A DNA stretch of 64,000 nucleotides, taken from contig CAWGMQ010000007.1 in the NCBI GenBank assembly GCA_963823665.1, forward strand, positions 416,001 to 480,000, given 5' to 3'. Made by a program: the position numbers and the translations under genes. Below are positions 4,153-42,477 of the stretch, piece after piece; the first letter of the stretch is position 1, and each line of letters begins with the position of its first letter. This DNA comes from an uncultured Planctomycetota bacterium. GTDB taxonomy: Bacteria; Planctomycetota; Planctomycetia; Isosphaerales; Isosphaeraceae. The notes beneath the pieces were generated by a model. The model ran no database searches. It was not told the origin of the DNA and saw nothing but the letters and a program-made list of their open reading frames with translations.

Positions 4153-5117
4153 GTGCATTATCAAGTCGATGAAAACTGGCTTCTTCTGCCCGAGGCAGCG
4201 CGATTCGTCGAGGTCGCTGGCGTTGCCACTGACTCTCGCGACCGGGTTTATGTGTTTTGCCGAGGCAAAACACCGGTCCTGGTCTTCGACCGCGAGGGGC
4301 GCTTGCAGTTCTCCTGGGGTGAGGGTCTCTTTGCGCGGCCGCATGGAATCACGATCGGGCCGGATGATGCTGTCTACATCACGGATGATCTCGACCACAC
4401 GATCAGGAAGTTCACACCTGATGGGGACCTCTTGCTGACCTTCGGCACGAGCGGCGTTGCGTCCGACACCGGTGCGACCAGCCAGGATTTCCGCAGTATT
4501 TGCCGGTCCGGTGCACCGTTTCATTACCCCACGAACGTGGCGCTGGCGGCGGATGGGTCGTTGTATATCTCGGATGGATATGGAAACGCACGCGTGCATA
4601 AGTTCTCACCCGATGGCCGCCATCTTCTGTCGTGGGGTGAGCCGGGCGCCCTACCGGGGCAGTTTCACCTTCCGCACGGAATTGCCGTCGGGCCCGACGG
4701 CACAGTCGCTGTGGCTGACCGCGAGAACAGCCGCCTCCAGTTCTTTTCACCGGACGGGCGGTTCTTGCGAGAATGGACACAGATTGCGCGGCCGTGCCAG
4801 GTCGCGATCGATACGCAGGGGATCGTATACGTGGCGGAGCTGGGGTATCGGGCCGGGATGTGGCCCGGGACCGTGCCGCCGGAGCCGGGTGCCACCGGGG
4901 GACGCGTGAGCATCTTCGATTCCGGAGGCGAGCTTCTGGCTCGCTGGGGCGGGGGTTCTGATCCCTGCGCGCGGGTGATTTCTTTGCGCCGCACGATATT
5001 TGCCTCGATTCGCGTGGCGATCTTTATGTGGGCGAAGTGGTCTGGTCGGCGGGGGGCGACGTGGGCGCCGTGCCGGCGAGCTGCCATGCGCTTCAGAAAT
5101 TCACCAGGAAGGGTTAG
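4153..5117 (+). CDS. NHL-repeat beta-propeller (PAL-like family); one frameshift near 4970
   Basis: FARPHGITI, FHYPTNVA, YISDGYGNARVHKF, FHLPHGIAV, VADRENSRLQFF; after the shift GDFFAPHDICLDSRGDLYVGEV...LQKFTRKG*. Confidence 0.85.
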
Positions 5118-5173
5118 AGTCATCGTTTGCGGGATCGTGGCGCCGTGGGCGCGACCTGGAGACGCTCGCATTT

Positions 5174-5233
5174 GTAGGGTGGGTGAAACCCACCAGTAGA
5201 TGCCGGAATCTTGGTGGGTTTGGCCCACCCTAC
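5174..5233. repeat. GTAG-type REP doublet (REPIN-like)
   Basis: GTAGGGTGGGTGAAACCCACC ... GGTGGGTTTGGCCCACCCTAC in inverted orientation, intergenic. Confidence 0.75.
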
Positions 5234-6330: not shown

Positions 6331-7646
6331 CGAAGTCTGCGGCGATGGTGCCGGATCGCGACGAGATTCGGAGCTTGCGTGATCTTTCGGCTTACCAGTG
6401 GAAATCGGGTATTGCCGCGTGGCTGGGATGGCTGTTCGACGGCCTGGACATGCACCTGTATGTTCTTGTGGCTGCGCCGTTCGTCGCGGAACTGGTGGGT
6501 GTTACCGACACGCGGAATGAGAGCGTCGGCTGGTACAGCTCGTGGATCCAGGCCGCGTTCCTGGTCGGCTGGGCGCTTGGCGGCGGTTTCTTCGGGCGGA
6601 TCGGCGACCGCATCGGCCGCAGCCGCGCGCTTTGTTTGACCATACTGACGTATGCGCTTTTCACGGGACTGGCTTTCTTCGCGCAAACGTGGTGGCAATT
6701 GTTGATCGTGCGATTCCTGGCGGCGCTGGGCATCGGCGGCGAGTGGGCGGTGGGTGCCTCTTTGCTTTCGGAAACATGGCCGCGGCGGTGGCGGCCCTGG
6801 ATTGCCGCCGTGCTCCAGAGCGGAGTCAATCTCGGCGTGCTGCTGGCCTCGGTGGCGACGTTTGTGCTGGCTGGCACGAGTCCTCGCGCGGTGTTCCTGG
6901 TCGGCGTGCTGCCGGCGCTCTTGGTCTTGTGGATCCGGTGGGCGGTTCCCGAAACGGACGAATGGAGTGCGGCCAAGCGCGAGGCGCAGGACGATGCGCC
7001 GGGAATCGCCGATCTGTTCCGGGGCCGGGTGCGGCGAACGGCGATTCTGGTGATCCTTGTCTGCTCGGTCAGCTTGACTGCGCATTGGGCATTCCTGTTC
7101 TGGTACCAGCAGCACTTGAGGAACTTGCCGGATGTGATCGGCTTATCGGCGGCGCGGAAAAATGAGATTGCCAGCCTTGCCAATTTCCTGGTCATGGGGG
7201 CGGCGATCTTGGGGAATTTCATGGCCGCGGCGATGGCGCGAGTGATGGGATACCGGCGTGCGATCGCGATCCTGTGTCTGGCATACTTTCTTTCGATGCT
7301 ACTCACCTACTCGGCACCTCGAAGCTACCCGGTCTTGCTCGCGTGCATTCCGGTCATGGGAGCCAGTGGCGGCCTGTTTGCGCTCTTCACGATGTACCTG
7401 CCGCCGCTGTTTCCTGTGCTCTTGCGAACGACCGGCGCGGGGTTCTGCTACAACATCGGGCGCATTGCCGCGGCGGTGGGGACGATCGTGTTCGGGTTGT
7501 TCACGAAGGTGGGCGACTACCGGATCGCCTTGATTTGCGCGGGCACGCTGTTCCTGCCGGCGGCGATCATCGCCTGGCGGCTGCCCGAGCTCTCCGACCT
7601 AGATCTTTCGCCTGCTTCTCCACCGGTTCGGCCGGTTCACTCTTGA
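6327..7646 (+). CDS. MFS transporter
   Basis: GWLFDGLD, motif A GRIGDRIGRSR, GIGGEWAVG, RTTGAGFCYNIGR; many hydrophobic helices; ATGA overlap with the previous gene. Confidence 0.92.
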   Translation: MTKSAAMVPDRDEIRSLRDLSAYQWKSGIAAWLGWLFDGLDMHLYVLVAAPFVAELVGVTDTRNESVGWYSSWIQAAFLVGWALGGGFFGRIGDRIGRSRALCLTILTYALFTGLAFFAQTWWQLLIVRFLAALGIGGEWAVGASLLSETWPRRWRPWIAAVLQSGVNLGVLLASVATFVLAGTSPRAVFLVGVLPALLVLWIRWAVPETDEWSAAKREAQDDAPGIADLFRGRVRRTAILVILVCSVSLTAHWAFLFWYQQHLRNLPDVIGLSAARKNEIASLANFLVMGAAILGNFMAAAMARVMGYRRAIAILCLAYFLSMLLTYSAPRSYPVLLACIPVMGASGGLFALFTMYLPPLFPVLLRTTGAGFCYNIGRIAAAVGTIVFGLFTKVGDYRIALICAGTLFLPAAIIAWRLPELSDLDLSPASPPVRPVHS

Positions 7647-7672
7647 CGATTGTCCGATCGCCGTTTTACAAT
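7643..7672 (+). promoter_or_regulatory. Putative sigma70 promoter of the paralog array
   Basis: TTGACG-N18-TACAAT, about 78 nt upstream of ATG 7750. Confidence 0.55.
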
Positions 7673-7749
7673 TGTCGTCGATCGAGCATCCTGTGGGGGG
7701 CGGCTGGTAGCCGGGGGTGCTCGTGCTTGTTGGGGTTGGGAGTGGATTC

Positions 7750-9127
7750 ATGTCGCGCGGGTTTTGCGCATGTGCTTTGTTTGGCGTGCTGGCGGCACCG
7801 TGTGCCGGCGGGCAGACGGATGCGAAGCCTGAGTTGCTGATCTCGCTGACGGTCCGGCCGGTTGCTGCGCCAGAACCGGCGCTTGAGTACGTGCTGCTTC
7901 CCCAGCTCAGGGAGATGACCCCGGGGAACCCGATCCAGGGCTACTTGAAGTGTTACCTCGAGCAGTATCGGTTTGTCTTTGACGAGGAGGAATTCGGGCG
8001 GCGCCAGACGCATCTGACGATGCCGCTCGAGGAATTGCCGGCACCGGAAGCGGCAGAAGTCGACCCCCGGTCGCTGGCGCAGGTTGACACGGCGGCCCGG
8101 CTCGACAAACCTGACTGGCAGGTCCTTCTGAAGCTCAGAGCCGACGGCATCAAAACGATGCTTCCCGACCTGCAGATTATGCGAAATCTGGCCAGGGCGC
8201 TGCAGGCGCGGTTGCGGGCCGAGGTTGCCGAGGGCCGGGTCGACGACGCGATGCGAACGGCCAAGACCATGTTCGCCATGGCGCGGCACATGGGGGAGCA
8301 TCCCACCTTGATCGGCGGTCTGGTGGGATATGCAATCATCAATATGGCGTTCGGCCCGCTGGAAGCGCTGGTGGAGCGCCCCGAGTGCCCCAACCTTTTC
8401 TGGGCGCTCACGAATCTGCCGGATCCCTTGATCTCGATCAGGACGGGAATGGAAGGTGAGCGGCTGATGAACTGGGCGCTTTTCCGGGAGCTGGATCGAG
8501 CCGCTCCCATGAGTGCCGAGCAGATCGAGAAATTCGTCGGCCCGGTCGACGCGATGTTTGCTGAGGGCGACCGTCTCAATATCCGGGCTTTTCTCGCGGA
8601 GCGGACGAGCAACGAACAGAATCTGGCCGCGGCGCGAAAGCGTCTTGCTCTTGCGGGGCTGCAGGAGGCGGATGTCAAAGCGTTCGTTCCCGCTCAGGTG
8701 ATCCTGCTGGATGATGCACGTGAGTGCGATGCCCGATTTGACGAGATCGCGAAGATCGTGGGGTTCTCCGCCTGGCGATTCGAGGAAATGGCGGAAAAGT
8801 TTGCCACCCTCAAGAAAGAACGGGCGTTCTTTGCCGATGCGCTCATGCCTCACCTGCTTGGCGCGGCGCGCTCACGCGCGGATCGAGCAGCGAATCGGCC
8901 TGCTGCGGCATGTCGAGGCGCTGCGGATGTATGCGGCTGAGCACGGCGGTGCCTTCCCGGCGAAGCTATCCGATATTTCCGTGCCGCTGCCGGATGACCC
9001 GTTCACCGGCAAGCCTTTTCTTTACGAAGCAAGTGGTAAGACTGCGCACGTTCGCGGCAGGCCGCCGAAGGCGATGGAGAACGATCGGGCGTTCCGCGTG
9101 CACTATGAAATCACTCTGAAGAATTGA
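7750..9127 (+). CDS. Array paralog P1, secreted helical protein of unknown function; frameshift near 8865
   Basis: ORFs 7717-8940 and 8711-9127 join into a full homolog of P2-P7; signal peptide. Confidence 0.85.
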
Positions 9128-9189
9128 CGAATCGGGTCGGCTGCTCAAACGAGCCGCTGGTCTCTTGTCCGCGAGGGGAGTGCTTTGCA

Positions 9190-10599
9190 ATGAATCGAGA
9201 TCGCCTGGTCCTTGCGGTGCTGGGCGCAATCGTCGCCGTCGCCTCGATCGCTCGACCATGCCCCGCACAGCAGACTGGTGCCAAGCCCGAGCTGCTGATC
9301 TCGCTTTCGGTCGTGCCGGCCGCGGCGCCGCAGCCGGCGCTCAAGTACTTGCTCATTCCCGAGCTCAGGGAGATGAATCCGGGCAACCCGATCCAGGGAT
9401 ACTTGAAATGTTACCTCGAGTCGTACCGGTTCGTCTTCGACGAGGAACAATTCGACCGCCGCCAGATTCTTCTCGCGATGCCGCTCGAGGAATTGCCGGC
9501 GCCTGAAGCGCGCGAATTCGGCCCATTCGCACTTGCCCAGGTCGACGCCGCGGCCCGGCTTGACAACCCCGACTGGCAAATCTTGCTCAAGCTGAGGGCC
9601 GATGGTTTCGAAACGTTGCTCCCCGATGTGCAGGCGATGCGCAGCCTGGGCCGGGCGCTGGCCGTCCGCTTTCGGTCCGAGATCGCCGGCGGGCGAATCG
9701 ACGACGCGATCCGGACCGCCAAGACGATGTTTGCGATGGCGCACCAACTGGGCGAGCATCCCACGTACATCGGCGATCTTGTGGGCATCGCGATCGCATC
9801 GATTGCGATCGTTCCGCTCGAAGAGATGATCCAGCATGCCGACTGCCCCAACCTCTACTGGGCGCTCACCAATCTTCCCGATCCTCTCGTTCCGATCAAG
9901 CGCGCGACGGAAGGTGAGCGGCTCTCGCTCTGTTGGTTCACCCGCGACCTCGACTCGAAGGGTCCTATGAGTGACGAGCAGATCAAGCGGTTCATCGCCC
10001 ACGTCGAGAAAATGGCTGGTAGCGATGCGGCGCTTTTGGCCAACGGTGGGGTTCGGGGCTATCTTGATGCCCACACCAAAGACGTCGCCAAGCTGGCCGC
10101 GGCCCGCAAGCGGCTTGTTGACCTGGGATTGCCGGAGGCACGTGTGAAGGCGTTTTCGCCCGATCAGATCATCCTGCTGGACGAGGAGCGCGAGCTCCGG
10201 GCGCGGTTCGATGACATTGCCAAGCTCATGGGTTTCCCGCTCCGGCAGTTTCAGGAGCTCAACGAAAAGCTAAGCGGCGTCAAGAAAGAGCCGGCGCTCC
10301 TCGCCGACTCCTTCTTGCCCTCGATGACAGCCGTGCGCATGGCGGTTGCCCGGCTCGAGCAGCGGATAGCGCTGTTGCGGAACGTCGAGGCACTGCGGAT
10401 GTATGCGGCGGAGCACAAAGGTGCCTTCCCGGCCCAGCTATCAGACGTTTCGGTGCCTTTGCCCGGCGACCCGGTCACCGGCAAGCCCTTTGTGTATGAA
10501 TTGAGTGGCAAGACCGCGCACCTGCGCGGCACGCCGCCGAAGGGAATGGAAGAGAACCGCTTTTTCCGCGTGCATTATGAAATCACTTTGAAAAACTGA
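9190..10599 (+). CDS. Array paralog P2 (469 aa)
   Basis: Signal peptide ending CPA|QQ; shared motifs PALKYLL, PGNPI, ARLD.PDWQ, KTMFAMA, CPNLYWALT, EALRMYAAEH, DP.TGKPF.Y. Confidence 0.9.
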   Translation: MNRDRLVLAVLGAIVAVASIARPCPAQQTGAKPELLISLSVVPAAAPQPALKYLLIPELREMNPGNPIQGYLKCYLESYRFVFDEEQFDRRQILLAMPLEELPAPEAREFGPFALAQVDAAARLDNPDWQILLKLRADGFETLLPDVQAMRSLGRALAVRFRSEIAGGRIDDAIRTAKTMFAMAHQLGEHPTYIGDLVGIAIASIAIVPLEEMIQHADCPNLYWALTNLPDPLVPIKRATEGERLSLCWFTRDLDSKGPMSDEQIKRFIAHVEKMAGSDAALLANGGVRGYLDAHTKDVAKLAAARKRLVDLGLPEARVKAFSPDQIILLDEERELRARFDDIAKLMGFPLRQFQELNEKLSGVKKEPALLADSFLPSMTAVRMAVARLEQRIALLRNVEALRMYAAEHKGAFPAQLSDVSVPLPGDPVTGKPFVYELSGKTAHLRGTPPKGMEENRFFRVHYEITLKN

Positions 10600-10661
10600 C
10601 GAACGAGATCGGCTGCCTGATTGTGTGGCGAGATTGTGGTCCGTGAAGGGAGTGCTTTCTG

Positions 10662-12070
10662 ATGAGGCGAGATAGGTTGGTCCTTGCGGTGCTGGGCGCG
10701 GTCGTTGCCATTGCTGTGAGCGCTCGATCATCCTTGGCCCAGCAGACCGCTGCCAAGCCCGAGCTCTTGGTCTCGCTATCGGTCGCGCCGGCGCCTGCGC
10801 CCAACCGGCGCTCAAGTATTTGCTCATTCCCGAGCTCAGGGAGATGAACCCCGGCAACCCGATTCAGGGATACTTCAAGTGTTATCTCGGGCAGTACCGG
10901 TTTGTGTTCGACGAGGAGAACTTCGACCGTCGCCAGATTCTTCTGGCGATGCCGCTCGAGGAATTGCCGGCGCCTGATGGGCCAGAGCTGGGCCGATCCG
11001 CGCTCGCTCAGGTCGACGCCGCGGCCCGGCTGGATAGCCCCGATTGGCAGATCTTGCTCAAACTGAGGGCCGATGGTTTCGGTACGTTGCTTCCCGATAT
11101 CCAGGCGATGCGAACCCTGGCCCGGGCGCTGGCCGGTCGGTATCGGGTAGAGGTCGCGAGCGGGCGAATTGACGACGCGATCCGAACCAACAAGACCATG
11201 TTTGCGATGGCACATCAATACGGCGTACACCCCATGCTGGTCGGCAATCTGGTGGGCATCGCGATCGCATCGATTGCGATCAATCCGCTTGAAGAACTGA
11301 TCCAGCAGTCCGATTGCCCGAACTTCTACTGGGCGCTCACCAATCTTCCCGATCCTCTGGTCCCGATCAAGCGCGGGATGGAAGGGGAGCGGCTCACGCT
11401 CTGGGGGTTTACCCGCGACCTTGACTCGACAAACCCGATGAGTGACGACCAGATCAAGAGGTTCATCGTCCACGTCGAGAAAAACTCTGGTAACGATGCG
11501 GCGCTCAATGCCAACGGCGGGGTTCGGGGCTACCTGGCTGCCCGCACCAAAGACGCCGCCAAGCTGGCCGCGGCCCGCAAGCGGCTTGTTGACCTGGGAT
11601 TGCCGGAGGCACGTGTGAAGGCGTTTCCTGCCGATCAGGTCATCCTGCTGGACGAGGAGCGCGAGCTCAGGGCGCGATTCGATGACATCGCCAAGATCAT
11701 GGGCTTCTCGGCCTGGCAGTTTCAGGCACTCTACGAAAAGTTGAGCAGCGGCAAGAAAGAGCCGGCGCTCCTGGCCGACTTATTCTTGCCCTCGCAGGTA
11801 GCCGTGCGGTGGGCGGTTGCCCGGCTCGAGCAGCGGATAGCGCTCTTGCGGAACGTCGAGGCGCTGCGGATGCACGCGGCCGAGCATAAAGGTGCCTTCC
11901 CGGCGCAGCTTGCGAACGTATCGGTCCCCTTGCCGGGCGATCCGGTCACCGGCAAGCCTTTTCTGTATGAGCTGCGCGGCAAAACCGCACACCTGCGCGG
12001 AACGCCGCCCAAGGGAATGGAAGAGAACAAGTTCTTTCGCGTGCATTATGAATTGACTCTGAAGGATTAA
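10662..12070 (+). CDS. Array paralog P3; frameshift near 10802
   Basis: ORFs 10662-10847 and 10820-12070; adding one base restores 469 aa. Confidence 0.88.
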
Positions 12071-12131
12071 TAAGTCGATCGGCGGGACGAATGAGTCGAG
12101 GGTTTCTTGTCGGTGAGGGGAGCGTTCCGTA

Positions 12132-13541
12132 ATGTTGCGAGATAGGTTGGTCATTGCGGTGCTGGGCGCAATTGTCGCCGTCGCCTCGAGCGCTCGGCCG
12201 TCCTGGGCCCAGCAGACCGGTGCCAAGCCCGAGCTCTTGATTTCGCTTTCGATCACGCCTGCCGCATCGCCTCAGCCGGCGCTCAAGTATTTGCTGATTC
12301 CCGAGCTCAGGGAGATGTCGCCGGGGAATCCGATCCAGGGGTATCTGAAGTGTTACCTCGAGCAGTACCGGTTTGTGTTCGATGAGGAGAACTTCGACCG
12401 GCGGCAGGCGCTTCTGGCGATGCCGCTTGAGGAAATTCCGGCGCCTGAAGTACCCGAGCTGGGCCGGTTTGCACTGGCTCAGGTCGACACTGCGGCCCGA
12501 CTCGACAACCCCGATTGGCAGATTCTCCTCAAGCTGAGGGCCGATGGTTTCAGCACCTTGATTCCCGACGTGCAGGCGATGCGAACTCTGGCGCGGGCGC
12601 TGGCCGTGCGTTTTCGGTCCGAGATCGCGAGCGGGCGGATCGATGACGGGATCCGAACCGCCAAGACCATGTTTGCAATGGCACATCATCTTGGCGAGCA
12701 CCCGACGCTGATCGGCGGCTTGGTGGGCATCGCGATCGCATCGATTGCGATCACGCCGCTTGAAGAGATGATCCAGCAGCCGGAATGTCCGAACCTCTAC
12801 TGGGCGCTCACCAATCTTCCCGATCCGATCGTGCCGATCAAACGAGGGCTGGAAGGGGAGCGGCTCACGCTCTGGGCGTTTACCAGCGACCTGGACTCGA
12901 CGCGTCCCATGAGCGACGAGCAGATCAAGGCATTCATCAGACACGTCGAGAAAAATTCCGGCGACGATGTGGCGTTAAAGGCCGACGGCGGGCTCCGCGG
13001 CTATCTTGCTGCTCGCACGAAGGACGCGGGCAAGCTGGTGGCGGCCCGCAAGCGGCTCGTCGAGCAGGGATTACCGGAGGCGCGGGTGAAGACGTTTCCG
13101 CCGGACCAGATCATCCTCCTAGACGAAGAGCGCGAGCTACGGACGCGGTTTGATGACGTCACCAAGATCATGAGCTTCCCGGGCTGGCAGTTTCAGCCGC
13201 TCTACGAGAAGTTAACCAGCGGCAAGAAAGAGCGGATGCTCCTTGCCGACACGTTCATGCCGTCGCAGCAAGCCGTGGTGTGGGCAGTCACCCGGCTCGG
13301 CCAGCGGATCGCGCTTCTGCGGAACGTCGAGGCGCTCCGAATGTACGCGGCCGAGCACAAGGGTACGCTACCAGCGCAGCTTGCGGATGTCTCGGTTCCC
13401 TTGCCTGGCGATCCGGTCACGGGCAAGCCTTTTCTCTACGAGGTAAGCGGCAAGACTGCGCACGTGCGCGGCACGTCGCCGAAGGGAATGGAACAGAACA
13501 GGTTCTTTAATGTGCATTACGAAATTACTCTCAAAAATTGA
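12132..13541 (+). CDS. Array paralog P4 (469 aa)
   Basis: Intact ORF with the same motifs and signal peptide. Confidence 0.9.
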   Translation: MLRDRLVIAVLGAIVAVASSARPSWAQQTGAKPELLISLSITPAASPQPALKYLLIPELREMSPGNPIQGYLKCYLEQYRFVFDEENFDRRQALLAMPLEEIPAPEVPELGRFALAQVDTAARLDNPDWQILLKLRADGFSTLIPDVQAMRTLARALAVRFRSEIASGRIDDGIRTAKTMFAMAHHLGEHPTLIGGLVGIAIASIAITPLEEMIQQPECPNLYWALTNLPDPIVPIKRGLEGERLTLWAFTSDLDSTRPMSDEQIKAFIRHVEKNSGDDVALKADGGLRGYLAARTKDAGKLVAARKRLVEQGLPEARVKTFPPDQIILLDEERELRTRFDDVTKIMSFPGWQFQPLYEKLTSGKKERMLLADTFMPSQQAVVWAVTRLGQRIALLRNVEALRMYAAEHKGTLPAQLADVSVPLPGDPVTGKPFLYEVSGKTAHVRGTSPKGMEQNRFFNVHYEITLKN

Positions 13542-13601
13542 CGTTTTGGATCGGCGGCTCGAACGGGCGGCCGAAAGTTTGGCAGCGGGGGTTGCCTTCT
13601 C

Positions 13602-15011
13602 ATGATGCGTGGCATGTTCTTCCGGGCGACGATCGCGGCGATTCTCGCTCTGGCATCATCTTTTCGGTCATCCATGGCCCAGCAGGCGAGCGCTCCGCCG
13701 GAGACGCTGGTCCGCCTGTCTGTGGCCGCTGCGAAGGCGCCGGAGCCCGCCTTGCGGTACCAGCTTCTGCCCGAGCTCAAGGAAATAAGTCCGGGCAATC
13801 CGATCGAGGGATATCTGAAGTGTCATCTGGAGCAGTACCGGTTCGTGTTTGACGAGGAGGGCTTCGAGCGCCGCCAGAGTCTGCTTGCAAAGCCGCTCGA
13901 GGAGCCGGAGGAGCCCTTTACACGAGAGATTCCTCAGAGCGCTCTGGCACAGGCGGATCGGGCCGCCCGACTTGACAACCCCGACTGGCAGATTCTCTTG
14001 AAGATCAAGTCCGACGGCGTCAACACCCTGCTGCCGGACGTGCAGGCGATGCGTGGCGTCGCGAGATCCCTGCAGGCGCGGTTTCGCACGGAGGTTACGC
14101 GTGGGCAGATCGACGATGCGCTCCGGACGGCGAAGACGATGTTTGCCATGGCTCGTCACATGGGCGAGCACCCGACGTTGATCGGCGACCTGGTCGCGAT
14201 TGCGATTGCAAACATGGCCATGACTCCGCTCGAAGAGCTGCTCGAGCAGCCCCGTTGCCCGAACCTTTTCTGGGCGCTCACAGACTTGCCCGAGCCACTG
14301 ATCTCGCTCAGGACGGGAATTGATGGGGAACGGCTCATCCTCTGGACGCTTTTCCGAGAGCTCAATTCGACTTCGCCGATGAGTGCCGAGCAGATCAAGC
14401 ATTTCATCGATCCGCTCGACGCGGCGATCAGGCAAGTGGCCGGGCCCGGCAACCGGCTGCGAGACCACTTTGCGTCGCTTGCGAAGGACCCTGAGAAAGT
14501 GCGAGCGGCTCGCAAGCGGCTCGTCGCTGGGGGGCTTCTCGAGCCGAGCGTGAGTGCGTTTCCGGTGGAACAAGTGCTCTTACTCGACGAGGCACGCGAG
14601 TGCCAGGCACGATTCGACGAGATCGTCAAGATCATGAAGTTCCCGGCCTGGCAATTTGAGGCTCTGTTCAAGAATTTGAACGCCGGCAAAGGCGCGCAAT
14701 CGATTTTCGCGAAGGAACTCTTCGGACTGGTATCTCTGGTGAACGCCCGCCGCTCGGTGGCCCGGCTCGACCAGCGGATCGCCTTGCTGAGGCACGTGGA
14801 GGCGGTGCGAATGTACGCAGCAGAGCATGGTGGCGCGCTGCCTGCGAAGCTTTCGGAGATTGCCGTGCCGTTGCCGGTTGACCCGTTCACGGGCAAGCCG
14901 TTTGGCTATGAGGTCGCCGGAGGGACTGTGCACCTTCGGGGTTCGCCACACGAAGCCGAACAGAACAACGCGAACTACCGGGTGCATTACGAAGTCACCA
15001 TCGGGCACTGA
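13602..15011 (+). CDS. Array paralog P5 (469 aa)
   Basis: Intact ORF with the same motifs; signal ends SMA|QQ. Confidence 0.9.
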   Translation: MMRGMFFRATIAAILALASSFRSSMAQQASAPPETLVRLSVAAAKAPEPALRYQLLPELKEISPGNPIEGYLKCHLEQYRFVFDEEGFERRQSLLAKPLEEPEEPFTREIPQSALAQADRAARLDNPDWQILLKIKSDGVNTLLPDVQAMRGVARSLQARFRTEVTRGQIDDALRTAKTMFAMARHMGEHPTLIGDLVAIAIANMAMTPLEELLEQPRCPNLFWALTDLPEPLISLRTGIDGERLILWTLFRELNSTSPMSAEQIKHFIDPLDAAIRQVAGPGNRLRDHFASLAKDPEKVRAARKRLVAGGLLEPSVSAFPVEQVLLLDEARECQARFDEIVKIMKFPAWQFEALFKNLNAGKGAQSIFAKELFGLVSLVNARRSVARLDQRIALLRHVEAVRMYAAEHGGALPAKLSEIAVPLPVDPFTGKPFGYEVAGGTVHLRGSPHEAEQNNANYRVHYEVTIGH

Positions 15012-15071
15012 AGACTGATCGAGGGGATCTTGAGGTCATTCGTCGATCGATCGCCGCGGGAGTCGCCTCTG

Positions 15072-16439
15072 ATGAAGCACATTTTGATCGCGGTTGCCGC
15101 CTTTGCCGTGCTTTCCGCTCGTTCCGCGGCGGACGAGACGCTCATTCAGTTGAGCGTCGAGCCCAAGGCGGCACCTGTGCCGGCGCTCAAGTATTTGCTT
15201 TTGCCCGAGCTCAAGGAGATGAATCCGGGCAACCCGATCCACGTGTATCTGAAGTGCGTGCTCGAGGTTCACCAGTCTCTGTTCGATAAAGAACAGTTTG
15301 AGCATCGTGCCAAGCTGCTGGCGATGCCGCTCGTCGCCCTGCCGGAGGCGGAAATCCGCCATTACGGACATCGGACGCTGGCACTGGCGGACAAGGCCGC
15401 GCGGCTCGACAGTCCGGACTGGCAGATCTTGTTGAAGCTCAGAGAGGACGGCATCAGCACGCTGCTGCCCGACGTGCAGGAGATGCGACCGCTCGCCGGG
15501 GCGCTTCAGGCGCGTTTTCGGAGCCAGGTGGCGATCGGCCGCTTTGACGACGCGATTGCGACGGCCAAGACCATGTTTGCGATGGCCAGGCACATGGACG
15601 AGCACCCGACGTTGATTGGCGGCCTGGTGGGAATCGCTATTGCCGGCCTTGCGATTGTCCCTGTTGAAGAAATGATCCAGCAGCCGGGGTGCCCGAACCT
15701 CTACTGGGCGCTGGCAAGCCTGCCGGCACCGCTCATCACCTGTGCGAAAGGGCGGGCAGGAGAGCGGCTCGTGGTCAGTACGGTTTTCAGGGAATTGAAG
15801 TCCGAAACGCCGATGAGCGAGCTGGAGCTGAAGAAATTCATCGACCCGCTCGACGGGCTGCTGGGCGACGGCAGCGCCGCGAACCGCGGCATGGCGACTC
15901 GTTGGATCGTTGAGCGGGCTAGTGCCCCGGTGAAGCTGGCCGCGGCCAAAGCGCGGTTGATCGAAAGGGGCATTCCCGAGTCGGTGCTCCGGTCCTTTCC
16001 AGCCCAGCAGGTCATCCTGCTGGATGACAAGCGCGAATGCGAGGTCCGGTTCGACGAAGTCACCAAGATCCAGATGTTCCCAGCGTGGCAGTTCGAGGCG
16101 CTGGCCGCGGCGGCCAGGCCCCACAAGGAGCCGTCGCTCTTCGCCGATGCGCTCTTGCCGGGCCAGGATCGAGTGCGTCGAATCCAGGCGAAGCTCGAGC
16201 AGCGAATCGCGCTGCTCGTGTGTGTGGAAGCACTTCGCCTGTATGCGGCCGAGCACGGCGGTGTTTTCCCTGCGAAGCTGTCGGATATATCGGTGCCGGT
16301 GCCTGTCGACCCGTTCACGGGCAAGGCGTTCGGCTACGAAACGACTGGCAAGAAGGCCCACTTGCGCGGCACTCCACCAGCCAGCGAAGCGAAGAGCGCC
16401 GAGTTCCGCTTCCATTATGAAATCATCTTGCGAGAATGA
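15072..16439 (+). CDS. Array paralog P6 (455 aa)
   Basis: ATG 15072 after GGGAG; MKHILIAVAAFAVLSARSAA signal; same motifs. Confidence 0.9.
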   Translation: MKHILIAVAAFAVLSARSAADETLIQLSVEPKAAPVPALKYLLLPELKEMNPGNPIHVYLKCVLEVHQSLFDKEQFEHRAKLLAMPLVALPEAEIRHYGHRTLALADKAARLDSPDWQILLKLREDGISTLLPDVQEMRPLAGALQARFRSQVAIGRFDDAIATAKTMFAMARHMDEHPTLIGGLVGIAIAGLAIVPVEEMIQQPGCPNLYWALASLPAPLITCAKGRAGERLVVSTVFRELKSETPMSELELKKFIDPLDGLLGDGSAANRGMATRWIVERASAPVKLAAAKARLIERGIPESVLRSFPAQQVILLDDKRECEVRFDEVTKIQMFPAWQFEALAAAARPHKEPSLFADALLPGQDRVRRIQAKLEQRIALLVCVEALRLYAAEHGGVFPAKLSDISVPVPVDPFTGKAFGYETTGKKAHLRGTPPASEAKSAEFRFHYEIILRE

Positions 16440-16503
16440 GAGTGACAGAAGAAATGAGAAGCTCAATCCCTATCTTGGTTTTTGACGCCGGGAGTTTTCT
16501 GCA

Positions 16504-17880
16504 ATGAAGCGACTGTTGCTGGCGGCCGTTGCGATCGCCGGTGTTTCGATCGATTGCTGCGCACAGGAGACGGAGGTCTCGTTCCGGGTGCACGCGATGC
16601 CGGCGCCTGAGCCCGCGCTCAAGTATCAGCTTTTGCCGCAGCTCGATGAGCTGAATCCCGGCAACGCGGCCCAGAACTATCTCAAGTGCTTCATGGAGCA
16701 ACACCCGTTCTTCTTCAGCAAGCAGGGAGTGGGGGAGCGCGAGCACTATCTCTCGATGACGCTTGCCGAGCTGGCGGGCAAGAAGCTGGGCACGTATGGC
16801 GGAGGCGCGCTGCGGCAAGCGGACTGGGCAGCCCGCATGGAGAGCCTGGACTGGCAGAGCCTGGGGAGTATCCAGGGCGGCGGGATGGAAGCACCGCCGG
16901 CGGAAGTCGGGCCGATGCAGGTTCTGGCCAAGGCGCTTCACGTTCGGTTTCGCATTGAAGTTGCCGAGGGCAGGTTCGACGACGGGGTTCGATCGGCGAA
17001 GACGATGTTCGCCCTGTCGCGCCATCTGGGTGAGCATCCGACCGAAGTTGCCAATCTCGTCGGGCTGTGGCTGGCTCATCTCACGCTTTCCACGATCGAG
17101 GAGATGGTGCAACAGCCGAAGTGTCCGAACCTGTACTGGGCGCTCACCGATCTACCAGCACCGCTCGTCGATCTGCGCAAAGGGGTGCACGGAGAACAAA
17201 CGATGGTCGCGGCGGAATTCCGGGCGATCCGCGCAGACTCGCCGATGACCGAGCAGGAGCTTGAAGCGCTCGTGAGCCGCCTCTCGGGCGTGATCAGCTT
17301 CTCGCGCGAGCAGACCGGCCAGGCGCCGCGCAGCGTCAGGGCGGCGCTTCGAACCAGCACGCGGGACGGCAAATCGGTTGATGCCGCGAGAGAGCGCTTG
17401 ATTCAGTCAGGCTGCAAGAAGGAGACGATCGCCAAATTCCCGCCGCTTCAGATCATCTTGCTGGACCAGAAGCATCGGTACGCGCTCGAGCGTGACGAGC
17501 GGCTCAAGCTGCTTTCGGTTCCGGTGTGGCAGACGCCGGGCTCGGGCTCCGCGGGCAAGCTTCAGGGAGGGGCACGATGGCCGCTGGCGGACCTCTTGCC
17601 GAATATCGACAAGCTGCGTGCGGAGGAAGCCGAGCTCGAGCGCCAGCTCGCCTTGCTGCGGTGGGTCGAGGCGCTGCGCATGTACGCAGGCGGACATGAC
17701 GGTAAGCTGCCGGCCAGTCGCGACGAGATTGCCGTGCCGCTGCCGCTGGACCCGGTCACCGGGAAAGCGTTTGCGTATTCCCTCGACGGGACGACGGGTC
17801 ACATTCGCGGTGAATCGCCTGCGGGACGCGGAACGAGCTCGAGCGCGGGTGTTTACTACGGCGTCACGGTCGGGAAGTGA
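16504..17880 (+). CDS. Array paralog P7 (458 aa, most divergent)
   Basis: PALKYQLLP, PGNAAQNYLKC, KTMFALSRHLGEHPT, CPNLYWALT, EALRMYA, DPVTGK. Confidence 0.9.
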   Translation: MKRLLLAAVAIAGVSIDCCAQETEVSFRVHAMPAPEPALKYQLLPQLDELNPGNAAQNYLKCFMEQHPFFFSKQGVGEREHYLSMTLAELAGKKLGTYGGGALRQADWAARMESLDWQSLGSIQGGGMEAPPAEVGPMQVLAKALHVRFRIEVAEGRFDDGVRSAKTMFALSRHLGEHPTEVANLVGLWLAHLTLSTIEEMVQQPKCPNLYWALTDLPAPLVDLRKGVHGEQTMVAAEFRAIRADSPMTEQELEALVSRLSGVISFSREQTGQAPRSVRAALRTSTRDGKSVDAARERLIQSGCKKETIAKFPPLQIILLDQKHRYALERDERLKLLSVPVWQTPGSGSAGKLQGGARWPLADLLPNIDKLRAEEAELERQLALLRWVEALRMYAGGHDGKLPASRDEIAVPLPLDPVTGKAFAYSLDGTTGHIRGESPAGRGTSSSAGVYYGVTVGK

Positions 17881-17910: not shown

Positions 17911-19455
17911 ATGATGAGGGTAAGGAACGCGACGCTCGAGAAGATCGACCCTGCAGAGGCTTGGAAGCCGTGGCAGCCTTCGGCGGGGGATCCGTGGAAC
18001 CGGAAGTGGGCGGCTCAACTCTATCGGCGCGCGGCATTCGGGTATAGCCGCGAGGAGCTGATCGAAGCTGAGCGCCTCGGTCTGCAAGGGACGCTGGACT
18101 TGCTGTTCGAAGGCAGGCCCTATGCGACGGAATCGCTCGAGACGTTGATCGACGTGGGCCGGTTGGCGGCTCTGCGTGACGATGGGGGCAATCAGCTTCG
18201 GGGCTGGTGGCTGTACGCGATGCTCCAGGGCGGCCATCCGCTGCGCGAGAAGCTCACGCTCTTCTGGCACGATCATTTCGCGACCAGCCTGGTCAAGGTG
18301 CAGAACCCGGCGCTCATGTTTCGCCAGAACTGCCTGCTGCGCGAGCACGCGCTCGCGCGGTTTGGGCCGATGCTGCAAGCGATCAGCCGCGACGGCGCGA
18401 TGCTGGTGTGGCTGGATTCCAACAGCAACGTGAAGGGGAGGCCGAACGAGAACTACGCTCGCGAGCTGATGGAGCTTTTCAGCCTGGGGGTTGGCCATTA
18501 CACCGAGAAAGACGTGCGTGAGGCTGCGCGGGCCTTCACCGGCTGGCGGACGGACGGCGCCGAATTTGCGTTCAACGCCGCTTCTCACGATGGCGGGGCC
18601 AAGACGGTGCTGGGCCGGACGGGCAACTGGGATGGCGGCGACGTGGTGCGGATCGTGCTCGAGCAGCCCGCGGCGGCACGTTTCCTGGTGCGCAAGCTGT
18701 ACCGGTTCTTCGTGAGCGAGGCGGATCAAGTGCCCGAGGCACTGCTCGAGCCGCTGTGCGAATCGTTCCGCAAGAGCGATTACGATATTGCGGCGCTCTT
18801 GCGGACGATACTTTCCTCGCGACATTTTTATTCGAGCCATGCGTTTCGCCAGCGCGTGAAGGGGCCGGTGGAATTCGTGCTCGGTGCGGTGCAAGCGGTT
18901 TGCAGGCGATACGCGGAAGACGAACCCGATTATCGGCCACTGCCGCAGCAAATGCTGGTGGGCGAGCTGGCCGAACTAGGGCAAGCCCTTTTCGCACCGC
19001 CGAACGTCAAGGGGTGGCCCGGCGGGAAGGCCTGGCTGAACACGGGGACCCTGCTCGAACGCTCCAATTTCGCTCAAGTGCTGGCGATGGGCACGATCTG
19101 GGCGACCAGGTCGCCGCAGCCGAGGGTGGCACCGGAATCGTCGTACTTATTCACCCTGCGGCAAGTTGTCGGTGCGATCGCGCCGGGCCTCTTCCCGATC
19201 GATATCGCTGCAGAGCCCAGTCCGCCCCGCGCTTTCGATCCGGCGCGGATCCTGGAGGAAGAGCACGTGAGCGGGGCGGAAGACGTGGTGCGCGTGCTGC
19301 TGGATCTTTACCTGCCGGGCGGCGTCTCTTCGATTCTGCGATCGAAGCTGGTGGCGTTCGTGGGCGAAGGGAAGCCGGAAAAGCAAGACCTCGAGCGGCG
19401 GGTGCGCGAGTCCGTGCATGCGATTCTCTCGCTGGCGGAATATCAACTGTGCTGA
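17911..19455 (+). CDS. DUF1800 family protein
   Basis: PLREKLTLFWHDHFATS, NENYARELMELFSLG, ARAFTGW, PPNVKGW, EYQLC terminus. Confidence 0.92.
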   Translation: MMRVRNATLEKIDPAEAWKPWQPSAGDPWNRKWAAQLYRRAAFGYSREELIEAERLGLQGTLDLLFEGRPYATESLETLIDVGRLAALRDDGGNQLRGWWLYAMLQGGHPLREKLTLFWHDHFATSLVKVQNPALMFRQNCLLREHALARFGPMLQAISRDGAMLVWLDSNSNVKGRPNENYARELMELFSLGVGHYTEKDVREAARAFTGWRTDGAEFAFNAASHDGGAKTVLGRTGNWDGGDVVRIVLEQPAAARFLVRKLYRFFVSEADQVPEALLEPLCESFRKSDYDIAALLRTILSSRHFYSSHAFRQRVKGPVEFVLGAVQAVCRRYAEDEPDYRPLPQQMLVGELAELGQALFAPPNVKGWPGGKAWLNTGTLLERSNFAQVLAMGTIWATRSPQPRVAPESSYLFTLRQVVGAIAPGLFPIDIAAEPSPPRAFDPARILEEEHVSGAEDVVRVLLDLYLPGGVSSILRSKLVAFVGEGKPEKQDLERRVRESVHAILSLAEYQLC

Positions 19456-19488: not shown

Positions 19489-20730
19489 ATGTTCAATCGT
19501 CGTAGATTCTTGACGCGATCGCTGCAAGGCTCATCGCTTCTGGCCATGGGCACGGTGGTTCCGCAGTTCGTTTCGCGCACGGCGGAGGCGGCTGCGCCGG
19601 GCAAGGACAACATCCTGGTGGTGCTCGAGATGACCGGGGGCAACGACGGGCTGAACACGGTGATTCCCTATGCCGACGACCTGTATCACAAGGCCCGGCC
19701 GACGCTGCGGCAGACCAAGGACGTCGTGATCAGGCTGGACGATCACGTCGGGCTCAATTCGGCGATGCAGGGCATCCGGCCGATGTGGGAGAAGGGGCAG
19801 TTGGCGGTGGTGCAGGGGGTAGGTTACCCCAATCCGGAGCGCTCGCACTTCGAAGCGATGGACATCTGGCAGTCGGCCGACCCGAAGGGGGTCGTCACGA
19901 CCGGCTGGTTGGGGCGTGCGGCGTGTGAGATGAAGAACCTCTCGGGAGGGGTGCCGATCTTGCAGGTTGGCTCGAAGAAATTGCCGCTGGCGCTTTCGGG
20001 TGCGCCGGGCGGCGGGGCAGTCACGGTGTTTGATCAGAATTCATTTCGTCTCCAGCTTGGTGGAGGCAAAGCCGCGCAGCAGAAGGCGAGGCGCAAGCTG
20101 CTGGATGAGCTGGCGGCGGCGGGCGCGAGCAATGGGGATCAGGATCTCACCTCGTTCATCCAGCGGCGGCAAGTGCAAACGCTGACGGCCGTGGAGACGC
20201 TGCGCGAGCTGATGGCGGGGAAGAACGCCGTTGCGCGGCCGGGCGCGGGGCTTTCGCAGAAGCTCTTGCTGATCGCCGAGTTGATCGACCGCGGGTTCGG
20301 CACGCGCATTTTCTATGTCAGCCTCGAAGGTTTTGACACGCACGCCGCGCAGGCCCCCGCGCATGCCGGATTGCTCGGTGAGCTGGCAAGCTCGATCAAT
20401 GCGTTTTTCGAGACCCTCAAGAAGACCGGCAACGACAGCCGGGTGCGACTGATGACGTATTCGGAGTTCGGCCGGAGGGTGCAGGAGAACGGCAGCCGGG
20501 GCACGGACCATGGCGCGGGTTCTTGCCTGTTCCTGGCCGGGCCGTCGGTCAAGGCGGGCGTGGTGGGCAAGCACCCGAGCCTGGCCGATCTCGACGCCGA
20601 TGATCTCAAGTACCACACCGACTTCCGCCGTGTTTATGCGACACTGCTCGACGGCTGGCTGGGGTGCGACAGCAAGTCGGTGCTGGGGGGCAAGTGGGAG
20701 CATGTGAAGGAGCTGGAGGCGAGGGTGTGA
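19489..20730 (+). CDS. DUF1501 family protein with Tat signal
   Basis: NRRRFL, GGNDGLNT, RSHF, GFDTH, SEFGRR, GTDHG. Confidence 0.92.
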   Translation: MFNRRRFLTRSLQGSSLLAMGTVVPQFVSRTAEAAAPGKDNILVVLEMTGGNDGLNTVIPYADDLYHKARPTLRQTKDVVIRLDDHVGLNSAMQGIRPMWEKGQLAVVQGVGYPNPERSHFEAMDIWQSADPKGVVTTGWLGRAACEMKNLSGGVPILQVGSKKLPLALSGAPGGGAVTVFDQNSFRLQLGGGKAAQQKARRKLLDELAAAGASNGDQDLTSFIQRRQVQTLTAVETLRELMAGKNAVARPGAGLSQKLLLIAELIDRGFGTRIFYVSLEGFDTHAAQAPAHAGLLGELASSINAFFETLKKTGNDSRVRLMTYSEFGRRVQENGSRGTDHGAGSCLFLAGPSVKAGVVGKHPSLADLDADDLKYHTDFRRVYATLLDGWLGCDSKSVLGGKWEHVKELEARV

Positions 20731-28445: not shown

Positions 28446-28835
28446 GTGCTCTCGGTTCGGTTTGGCGATATTGTTCTCGTTTCGCTGGTTGACATGAATG
28501 GTGTCAACACGAAACCCAGGCCTGCGGTCGTCGTCAGCCCTAATGAGGTGGTCTCGAGCGGCGGTCCTATCGTCGTCGTGGCGCTCACGTCGACGCTCCC
28601 TCGAGTGATGACCGAGGACCACGTCCCTCTTCAGTGGCAACATAACAAGCATCCGATAACCGGGCTCAATAAACCGAATGCGGCCGTCTGCAATTGGCTT
28701 TCGGTTGTGCAACCGGATCAGATAATCAGACAAATTGGTCGAGCGGTCGGCGATCGCCTTCAGGCGATAGCCGCTCGCTGTCGAGAGAACGCCCAAGCGC
28801 TCATCGACTCTGACACCGCTGAAGAGGAAGGCTGA
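28446..28835 (+). CDS. PemK/MazF family mRNA interferase toxin
   Basis: GDIVLV...KPRPAVVVS...VVVALTS...TGL..P; AGGAG RBS. Confidence 0.85.
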   Translation: MLSVRFGDIVLVSLVDMNGVNTKPRPAVVVSPNEVVSSGGPIVVVALTSTLPRVMTEDHVPLQWQHNKHPITGLNKPNAAVCNWLSVVQPDQIIRQIGRAVGDRLQAIAARCRENAQALIDSDTAEEEG

Positions 28836-28933
28836 TCGCGGTCAGACCCAAGCGATCACGAGGCTGCGAATTCTGCCGTGGCGTTCCGCGGCGCGAGCGC
28901 CTGGAATAGAATCAGTGAGCCTGGGAGGTGTGT

Positions 28934-29344
28934 GTGATCCTTCGTATTCGTGACGCGCGGGTCTGTGGGCCGCATTCGTTGCGGTTGACATTCAGCGATG
29001 GGACTACCAAGCAGGTCGAAGTCAGTCCGCTGCTTGACGGCCCGATCTTCGAGCCGCTTCGGGACCCCGTGTATTTTGCGCGTGCGACCCTGGACGCGAC
29101 CTGCGTGACGGTGGTCTGGCCCAATGGCGCGGACTTCGCTCCGGAGGCCCTCCATGAGCTCCAGGCCGAGGCCATGTCCGAATTCTGTCTAATTCTTGTT
29201 CGGCCGGGGAGGGTCGCGGATGGCGGAGCGGGACTATTACGGGATCCGTGCTGCCTCCGCGGTGGATGCCTTGTCGATCGCCGCGGCCAACAGGCTAATC
29301 CGCGAGATGAAGCTGCTCCTTGCCGATTCAGGGAAGGCATGTGA
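28934..29344 (+). CDS. DUF2442 family protein (3' extension doubtful)
   Basis: LRLTFSDG, LDGPIFEPLRD..YF, TVVWPNGADFAPEAL; GGAGG RBS. Confidence 0.8.
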   Translation: MILRIRDARVCGPHSLRLTFSDGTTKQVEVSPLLDGPIFEPLRDPVYFARATLDATCVTVVWPNGADFAPEALHELQAEAMSEFCLILVRPGRVADGGAGLLRDPCCLRGGCLVDRRGQQANPRDEAAPCRFREGM

Positions 29345-37020: not shown

Positions 37021-37035
37021 GGAGTGCAAATCGAT

Positions 37036-38284
37036 ATGAGCGAGCACATTCGCGGATTCAACGAGCGGGAGATTTTGCGTAGCGTGGGCGACGGCGACGG
37101 AATGCACCCCCCCTGGCCCCCCCTTCTCAAGGGGGGGAAAGAGAGTGAGACCCTTCTCGACGGGGGGAATCCGTTGGACGCGGCTCGGCGGAAGTCTCGG
37201 CCTCTCGATATCTCGCGGCGGGTTTTTCTGGATCGTTCGACTCTAGCTGCCGCGGCGGCGCTGGCGGGGTTGGGGTCGCTGGCGGGGACTTCGATCAGCC
37301 GGGCGGCGCAGAAGGAGGTCTTGCCCAAGCACATCACGCCCGAGACGCTCAAGGCGGTGATCAAGGGGCTCGATTACCTTCAGCTCAAGCAGTCTGACGA
37401 TGGGTCGTGGGTCATGGGCGGGGGCGAAGGGTACCCCGTGGCCATGACGGCGCTTGCGGGTACGGCGATGCTTGCGCATGGAAATTCGCCCACGCGTGGA
37501 AAGTACGCCAGGAACGTGCAGGGGGCTGTCGAATACCTGGTGCGCTGCGCCACTCCGAATGGCCTTATTACCGGCTCGTCGCAAGACGGGGGCCAGCCGA
37601 TGCACGGGCATGGGTTCGCGCTCATGTTCCTGGCGTGCGTGTACGGCATGATCACAAAGGAATCGTTGCGGCAGAAGGTGCAAGCAGCGGTGCGGAAGGC
37701 CGTCACGCTGACGAGCCAGGGGCAGAGCCTGCACGGGGGCTGGACGTATATCCCCGGCGCCGGCGACGAAGGGTCGGTCACGGTCACACAGGTGCAGGCC
37801 CTCCGCGCGGCGCACAACGCGGGGTTTCTGGTTCCGAGGGCAACCATTGAAGAGGCGGTGAAATACCTGGAGCGATGCCGTACGCCGGAAGGCGGGATCC
37901 AGTATTCGCTGCTGGCCGCGACGGGGCCCAGGCTGCCGATCTCGGCCGCGGCGGTGGCGACGCTGTATAACGCAGGCCAGTTCGACAGCACCATTGCGAC
38001 GGATTGCCTGAAGTACGTCTGGGCCAAATTCAGCGCGACCGAGGGATGGGACAAGGGCGACGGCCACTCGTTCTACGCACACCTGTATGCGGCCCAGGGG
38101 TTTTACATGGCGGGCGACCAGTACTGGGACAAGTATTTCCCCGCGACCCGAGACCAGTTGCTCGCCATGCAACAGCCCGAGGGCTCGTGGAACGGCGACG
38201 GTGTCGGGGACGGTTTACGGGACGTCAATCGCGACCATCATCCTTCAGCTTCCGTACAAATATCTTCCGATCTTCCAGCGATAG
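37036..38284 (+). CDS. Prenyltransferase/squalene oxidase repeat protein with Tat-like SRRVFL; frameshift near 38210
   Basis: [47 protein letters not shown]; ends YKYLPIFQR*. Confidence 0.82.
37107..37140. repeat. Dispersed hairpin repeat, copy 2 (inside the 5' part of the prenyltransferase-like ORF)
   Basis: CCCCCCCTGGCCCCCCCTTCTCAAGGGGGGGAAA. Confidence 0.75.
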
Positions 38285-38298
38285 CGAGGAACGCCATC

Positions 38299-39347
38299 TT
38301 GAAAGACAAATCCACCGACGACATCGACCTGGCCGAGCTGGACGAGCTGAACAAGGCTTATGCGGCCATTCGCGAGCAGATGTCGCGCCAGATCGTGGGC
38401 CAGAACGAAGTGCTCGATCAGCTCTTGATCGCCGTCTTCGCGCGCGGCCATTGCATCCTTGAAGGCGTGCCGGGCCTGGCCAAGACGCTGATGGTGCAAT
38501 CGCTTGCGCAGTCGCTGGCCCTGGACTTCAACCGGATCCAGTTCACGCCCGACCTGATGCCCAGCGACATCACCGGGACCGAAGTCCTTTATGAAGACCG
38601 CGCCAGCGGGGCACGGGAGCTGCGATTCGTGACGGGCCCGATCTTCGCCAATCTGATCCTGGCGGACGAGATCAACCGTACGCCGCCCAAGACCCAGGCC
38701 GCGCTACTGGAAGCCATGCAGGAGCGGCAGGTGACTGCGGGCGGGCACCGGCACGTGCTGCCGGACCCTTCTTCGTGCTGGCGACGCAGAACCCGATCGA
38801 GCAAGAGGGGACGTATCCTCTTCCGGAAGCGCAGCTCGACCGGTTCCTGTTCAAGATCTTCATCACTTATCCCACGCCCGAAGAAGAGCGGCGGATTTAC
38901 CGGCTTACGACGGGTGCTGAAGAGCACGCGATCACGCCGACACTGGACGGCCATCGAATCGCCGCATTGCAGAAGCTGGTGCGCCGGGTGCCGGTGACGG
39001 ATCATTGCATTGACTACGCGATGGATCTGGTGCGGGCCACGCGCGGGCCGGACCATGGCGGGCCCAAGTACATCGGCGACTGGGTGGCCTGGGGCGCGGG
39101 CCCACGGGCGGGCCAGGCGCTGATTCTGGCCGCCAAGGCGAAGGCGGCCTTGATGGGCAGGCCGAGCGTTTCCGTCGAGGACATCCAGTCGGTCGCCCCT
39201 CCGGTGTTACGGCACCGGATCGTGATCAATTACAACGCCCAGGCCGCCGGCGAGTCGAGCGACTCGATCGTGAAGAAGCTGCTCGCCGATGTACCGATCA
39301 GGAAAGGACCCGCCAGTGCCGCCGTCGCGGAAATATTCCGATCCTGA
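38299..39347 (+). CDS. moxR: MoxR family AAA+ ATPase; frameshift near 38768
   Basis: [68 protein letters not shown]. Confidence 0.93.
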
Positions 39348-40242: not shown

Positions 40243-40275
40243 TTTGACAGTTCGCCAGGGCACGCGATTCTGAAC

Positions 40276-42438: not shown

Positions 42439-42477
42439 ACACAGCTTCTCGTGTTAATCACAGCTTGACGTTCACTT

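Follow-up and report, generated by a model that had tools for sequence, protein, structure and literature searches.

Seven tandem paralogs, encoded on the + strand at positions 7750-17880 of the window (the whole 64,000-nt stretch of DNA analysed here) and 40-83% identical to copy 2, each end in a head that distant relatives link to GspG of type II secretion and, more broadly, to type IV pilins. They belong to a family of thousands of clusters that has no Pfam or NCBIfam model and now gains a fold, a GspG origin and a testable partner. Given that relatives mostly lie directly behind an ECF sigma factor and a likely membrane inhibitor, we put at about even the chance that the family acts as a periplasmic partner, in the position of RseB, in a unit of ECF sigma factor, one-helix anti-sigma and partner. 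The array in the window is a derived, sigma-less branch of this family (six copies of subtype A and one of subtype B), with its own promoter/operator and running into a DUF1800-DUF1501 pair.

A pilin-type head without a prepilin leader

The original prediction was that each copy closes with a pilin- or GspG-like module, and both the predicted structure and transitive profile homology bear out a head of this type. In copy 2 (subtype A; 9190..10599, + strand; 469 aa from the ATG at 9190) the head is encoded at 10318..10599, from P377 to the stop, and thus makes up the final 93 residues, with a helix at 377-408, a P.P.DP.TGKPF.Y loop and three predicted strands. Modelled alone, the last 100 residues of copy 2 reach a pLDDT of 93.8. 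The module (~95 aa) is predicted to form a long helix plus beta-meander, in which an amphipathic helix packs on an antiparallel meander as it does in type IV pilin heads. When this model was compared by VIA with 48,161 representative solved chains, the best 25 rows all belonged to pilus systems (24 pilins, pseudopilins or pili, and one entry titled PilM) at Z 7.5-4.8, and the first unrelated chain followed at Z 4.7. The best match is EpsG (Z 7.5, rmsd 2.6 A, 82 residues aligned). Since a best Z below 8 is middling by the scale of the tool, we take the enrichment, not any single score, as the evidence. Foldseek placed five GspG structures at TM 0.57-0.61, and none of its matches to the module had E <= 0.001.

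The predicted module thus has the long helix and meander that had been anticipated, whereas the profile match anticipated with them did not come directly: the window copies have no family match in Pfam or NCBIfam and do not reach the curated Pfam cut-off of the GspG family PF08334. Among 28 related proteins scanned with PF08334, one passes (L026, 21.3 vs 21 bits) and two more lie below the cut-off, and the score is weak (4.4%) when the profiles of the module and of GspG are compared directly. The connection runs through distant relatives, found by the family profile, whose matches cover the helical domain as well as the module and whose heads retain the GspG-type loop YSVG.NG.DDGG. Their profile aligns with the module profile at 99.35% and with 22 GspG sequences at 97.85%, and it retrieves 2kep, a structure of GspG, at E 2.2e-4; comparison with two unrelated controls gave 0.1%. 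Because the distant members link the module to GspG in this way, the profiles show, through these intermediates, that the head is a GspG derivative whose C-terminal loop was lost in the array clade. That loop, S.G.DG..GG..D in GspG and absent from the array clade, is one that we take to be a calcium site. A PDB sequence search with the family profiles had no pilin among its matches, and the best of these (plant LRR kinases, KdpB) were rejected as short helix matches.

GspG (EpsG 4lw9, PulG 1t92/5wda, XcpT 2kep; PF08334) and type IV pilins are therefore the closest known systems to the head. Head and GspG have in common an amphipathic helix that starts from a conserved proline, a G.yP turn, a P.DP..G..y.Y motif and a beta-meander; the P.DP.TGKPF.Y motif, which had been said to recall GspG, does align with GspG PKDPWG..Y.Y. 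Unlike GspG, the family lacks a class III leader and a hydrophobic assembly helix, whose place is taken by a Sec-like leader and a helical domain of ~350 aa, and the array clade lies outside any T2SS/T4P operon. L032 (1267-2016, + strand) holds the only PF08334 match of the genome, in which a GspG-like head follows an internal membrane helix, again without a prepilin leader. L209 (1238-6721, - strand) has three tandem membrane-anchored distant members and L207 (2113-3204, + strand) a shorter single one, all with the GspG-type loop kept.

The proposed register with the pilin helix of the DUF1559 protein in the window (54990-56018, - strand) holds, with P1, A5, R7, A9, R12, L19, A25, L26 and Y29 identical (9/29), and the G.FP match comes after a one-residue gap. 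Alignment by hhalign recovers the same register weakly (probability 3.8%, P 0.011), so the pairwise likeness, taken alone, is barely beyond chance. The module profile scores 3.4% against 28 DUF1559 proteins of the same genome, and the head reaches the DUF1559 protein at 93% (hhalign) by way of distant family members. Planctomycete DUF1559 (SBP_bac_10) pilins share the helix register with the family head, but only this first helix aligns: the family has no PF07596 domain and no H-X9-DG tail, and its head is GspG-like.

In full length, the model of copy 2 (pLDDT 87.8, pTM 0.84) predicts a single compact protein, laid out as leader, single strand at 35-41, helical body, 32-residue helix at 377-408 and three strands. 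Searches with it found only generic helical repeats (best VIA Z 8.2, to designed repeats; no Foldseek match with E <= 0.001). A stretch of the N-domain ('LLP + helix', residues ~143-166) has an apparent likeness to the pilin helix.

Direct reading of the N-termini of all seven copies agrees with the claim that they lack a prepilin leader, as no G|F...E motif occurs. None of the 7 copies has the class III signal peptide of type IV pilins (G|F...E5) or their hydrophobic assembly helix, and a Pfam scan of the 8 array ORFs gave no N_methyl and no other match. Instead, each copy has a short basic-hydrophobic leader whose likely cleavage site carries A/G (by eye; also in homologues), and the pilin head does, as proposed, follow a helical domain of ~350 aa that has a Sec-like leader. 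We infer Sec export with signal cleavage from these leaders, and the array proteins are likely exported and periplasmic. Processing by prepilin peptidase and normal entry into filaments need the leader and the hydrophobic assembly helix at the pilin N-terminus. With a 350-aa domain in place of that helix, neither this processing nor the usual filament entry is therefore expected. Sec-like leaders are found in close family members, and membrane anchors in many distant superfamily members; one membrane-anchored cluster with wide flanks has no sigma factor among its ORFs of at least 200 aa.

The tandem array and its promoter

All genes of the array lie on the + strand. Besides copy 2, subtype A comprises copy 1 (7750..9127), copy 3 (10662..12070), copy 4 (12132..13541), copy 5 (13602..15011) and copy 6 (15072..16439), and these six copies are 55-83% identical to copy 2. 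Copy 7 (16504..17880) belongs to subtype B, a clade placed last, immediately 5' of DUF1800. It is followed by genes for a DUF1800 protein (17911..19455) and a DUF1501 protein (19489..20730; twin-arginine-like leader by eye), both co-conserved with the array. An MFS transporter gene immediately precedes the array, and no sigma or anti-sigma gene lies upstream.

The pilin region is present in all seven copies, as had been stated, although in copy 1 it lies in the second frame after a frameshift near 8865. Copy 3 has one frameshift near 10800, just after the leader. Copy 1 is intact in a same-genus genome, where breaks fall at other positions, and the frame of copy 3 is restored by one 151-base contig at depth 2, a weak hint; no contig spans the break in copy 1. 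Given these observations, the frameshifts of copies 1 and 3 are likely, though not proven, to be long-read errors.

A quick IQ-TREE phylogeny of 98 intact copies, with fragments left out, recovers subtype B as a 22-row clade that includes copy 7 (SH-aLRT 100). In 21 of its 22 rows the gene precedes DUF1800, and the remaining row is cut by a contig end. As copies 2-6 group together in subtype A with rows from related genomes, we read them as a local expansion. The broken copy 1 stood outside the tree and is assigned to subtype A by its 57% identity to copy 2.

The best sigma-70-like site of the region (10/12) is at 7643..7680 (+ strand), where TTGACG-18 nt-TACAAT carries two ACAATTGT-like palindromes over its -35 and -10 boxes. 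It is likely the promoter/operator of the array. The palindromes suggest a repressor, and they recall operators of the BlaI/CopY type. The motif TTGAC-N17-20-ACAATTGT occurs upstream of copy 1 and of subtype-A copies of relatives (L123, L124, L126, L128-L130, L134, L137, L140, L144, L159, L161, L165, L179 and L185), matches 23/209 loci, several of which are duplicates, and in some genomes was duplicated together with the gene. Genome-wide there are one exact and one two-mismatch site. Because the neighbours of the only other site are uninformative, no regulon was drawn.

Neighbourhoods and possible roles of the family

At 50% identity the family comprises 6,954 clusters with E <= 0.001 and 1,902 with E <= 1e-30, and all names shown for the 120 closest matches and for 10 clusters looked up are 'hypothetical protein'. 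It is present in 35/41 related genomes and in 23/151 across the phylum. The named close loci are all from Planctomycetota save one record titled Alcaligenaceae (L175), in which a close sigma/anti-sigma-like/family locus is nested among planctomycete tree rows; its placement may reflect mis-binning or transfer. A full-text literature search, viewed as titles and the starts of abstracts, returned no description of the family or of a three-gene unit, and papers on planctomycete ECF groups may cover the sigma factor or its context. Such groups are reportedly defined by Jogler 2012 and Wiegand 2020.

We mapped 84 loci: 63 close loci, 20 further stretches (6 of them duplicates, which leaves 14 of divergent type) and the window. 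An ECF sigma factor lies directly upstream in 45/77 (32/63 close and 13/14 divergent-type loci), and a small gene for a one-helix anti-sigma-like protein is usually detected between it and the family member, which thus takes position +2 of the ECF unit; these loci are related, not independent, and the array in the window is without the pair. The anti-sigma-like protein (~135-190 aa), which matches nothing in Pfam, starts with a conserved segment and ends in a short conserved tail; between them lie a single hydrophobic helix and a linker rich in proline. DUF1800, usually with DUF1501 next, is directly downstream in 33/63 close loci. Sigma upstream, DUF1800 downstream or both are found in 55/63, and the other 8 stop close to a contig edge on one side or both; a few of the 31/63 close loci without sigma upstream are cut by contig ends.

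Since these loci had been picked by family membership, a reverse test was begun from the sigma factor. It found 11 sigma loci (E <= 1e-30, 121 genomes), of which 7 have a family member at +2 and 4 have unrelated modules at +1/+2. Three of the +2 loci were newly found, in three other families, and there a sigma gene, a gene for a 119-136-aa one-helix protein and a signal-peptide family member are adjacent or overlap. In L223 (1469-3996, - strand) a related ECF sigma factor is followed by a membrane protein fused, by eye, to a serpin-like domain. The genome of the window has two sigma units elsewhere, outside the array. L208 (2798-4913, - strand) encodes an ECF sigma factor, a small one-helix protein and a distant family member with overlapping start/stop codons, and L205 (7312-11460, - strand) a sigma factor, an anti-sigma-like protein, a frameshifted family member and a signal-peptide DUF1559 protein. 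An anti-sigma of the subtype that would match the array was not found in this genome, which is 92% complete.

One protein, P0282, is a fusion of an ECF sigma factor, a transmembrane segment and a family-like domain (probability 96.6%). For the family member of L135, rather than a window protein, a complex with the tail of the neighbouring anti-sigma-like protein is weakly predicted, at 0.40 against 0.00 for the best of 3 controls; at least 51% of contacts are shared between runs and the partner pLDDT is at least 39. The mark set for this score was reached by 116/157 solved and 2/215 mismatched pairs, but those that reached it with a score of 0.60 or below were only 18/157 solved pairs and both of the mismatched ones.

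Of the conserved links of the family, that to the sigma/anti-sigma-like pair runs deepest. The unit has the same three-gene order and topology as rpoE-rseA-rseB of E. coli, but the family has no sequence match to RseB (no Pfam/NCBIfam), and its predicted fold is mostly helical plus pilin, whereas that of RseB is beta-rich. The anti-sigma-like protein also lacks a Pfam match, its binding by the partner is only weakly predicted, and the array is without the sigma pair. The family protein may work in an RseB-like manner; it is itself no RseB, which, as described in PMC8103513, binds the periplasmic part of RseA. Among known planctomycete groups, subgroups s4 and s7 of ECF213 have a one-helix putative anti-sigma at +1 in the relevant passages of PMC7826278, and the portion of its supplement on this group reports no context conservation past +1. 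ECF213 and the sigma unit of the family are both planctomycete ECF systems with a one-helix protein at +1; here +2 is conserved as well.

In the periplasmic-partner scenario, a family member would bind the periplasmic tail of the anti-sigma, so that this pilin-derived protein holds or releases it, and an envelope cue that engages the protein, possibly pilin-related, would lead to release of the sigma factor. Pilins are a natural candidate for the cue given the 114 DUF1559 matches in the genome. The seven array copies may have kept the binding surface and changed partners, considering that the array is a derived branch without sigma that has its own promoter and runs into DUF1800-DUF1501. This scenario has to accommodate the sigma-less array and the near half of close loci without sigma upstream, the four sigma loci with unrelated +1/+2 genes and the many membrane-anchored superfamily members; the complex score is weak and comes from a non-window protein, the loci are related, and the +2 gene could simply be a target of the sigma factor. 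A more specific version seems to us rather unlikely. In it, planctomycetes, with more than a hundred pilin genes in each genome, would have made the pseudopilin head into a soluble periplasmic receptor that senses the status of pilins or pilus assembly and steers a dedicated ECF sigma factor via a new family of small anti-sigmas, a switch for pilus stress derived from a pilus subunit, with arrays like the present one widening the range of pilins recognised. If the partner role is true, the type IV filament fold would have been put to a new use, with a pilin head acting as a soluble signalling module in the periplasm, and an undescribed three-gene ECF circuit with its anti-sigma family would be added for Planctomycetota, whose pilin and ECF repertoires are large and mostly without explanation.

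The original prediction also proposed that the array proteins are possibly soluble pilus-tip, adhesin or pilin-mimic proteins. The analysis does not support a pilus tip or an adhesin, and a pilin mimic is possible. What is conserved around the family is the ECF sigma/anti-sigma-like pair, the DUF1800-DUF1501 genes and a DUF1559 protein that is secreted, and no pilus machinery (assembly ATPase, platform, secretin, minor pilins) was recognised by eye in representatives of the 60 neighbour clusters that recur most often across the 84 loci. Pilins can be encoded away from pilus machinery. A role as pilus subunit is unlikely for the array proteins, and we think it very improbable that they are soluble subunits of a tip or adhesin, attached to a type IV filament by the pilin head in the way of secreted PilC/PilY1. 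Their predicted pilin fold, export leader and tandem expansion would suit such subunits, and there is precedent, in the part of PMC13533445 that treats them, for PilC/PilY1 adhesins that are secreted, dock on minor pilins and, as signal-peptide proteins, attach to tip pilins by strand addition. Yet the end of the pilin helix that forms the filament core, the N-terminal one, is on structural grounds taken up by its fusion to the 350-aa domain that precedes it, and no adhesin-type domain was detected in the proteins nor any recurrent minor-pilin or assembly gene, by eye, in their neighbourhoods.

The family could instead be an output of the sigma factor, namely a decoy, cap or chaperone for pilins, soluble in the periplasm, that acts alongside the secreted leaderless DUF1559 protein and whose head would bind the many pilins of the cell or the pilus platform; this we hold to be possible, if doubtful. 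It would fit the divergent-type loci, where the next gene encodes a signal-peptide DUF1559 protein (a leaderless pilin fusion) in 12/14, the abundance of DUF1559 in this genome, the persistence of the array under its own promoter without the sigma pair, and two proteins in which the family domain is fused to a secreted DUF1559 protein, P0271 (clean) and P0272 (with a leader-like linker). These were the two fusions found in a search of longer proteins, and the lack of a prepilin leader in either is weak evidence. Leaderless SBP_bac_10 proteins of the Sec/SPI type have been detected by proteomics in Tuwongella, according to the passages of PMC8567305 that concern them. That no pilus-machinery genes, by eye, recur nearby speaks against a decoy, and signalling is better suited by the sigma-family fusion and by how tightly the gene is coupled to that of the anti-sigma-like protein. 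In a separate protein, P0161, the family domain stands behind a thioredoxin-like (WCGPC) domain. It is also conceivable, although improbable in our view, that the pilin head is only a relic of evolution, capping a helical protein that binds ligands or acts as a scaffold, the array supplying binding subunits for DUF1800-DUF1501 with ligands broadened by duplication. The frequency of DUF1800 as the next gene, the tie of the subtype B clade to it, the divergence among subtype-A copies and the loss in the array clade of a loop that distant members retain would all agree with this. The DUF1800 link is limited to one branch, however, whereas the link to sigma is found in several families across the phylum.

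Other genes in the window

Several other features of the window were noted. Near its start, at ~1248-1724 and in front of the gene at 1381, part of the repeat-protein gene of 4153-5199 is present as a nearly identical duplicate. A PemK/MazF-like toxin gene and, after it, a DUF2442 gene occupy 28446-29344. At 37024-44926 lies a MoxR AAA / DUF58 / BatA-vWA operon, whose MoxR ORF is apparently joined to a prenyltransferase-like region, possibly via a frameshift. Finally, a DUF4190-DUF1559 protein encoded at 54990-56018 (- strand) carries a cysteine-pair motif at its N-terminus and has two membrane helices in place of a prepilin leader.
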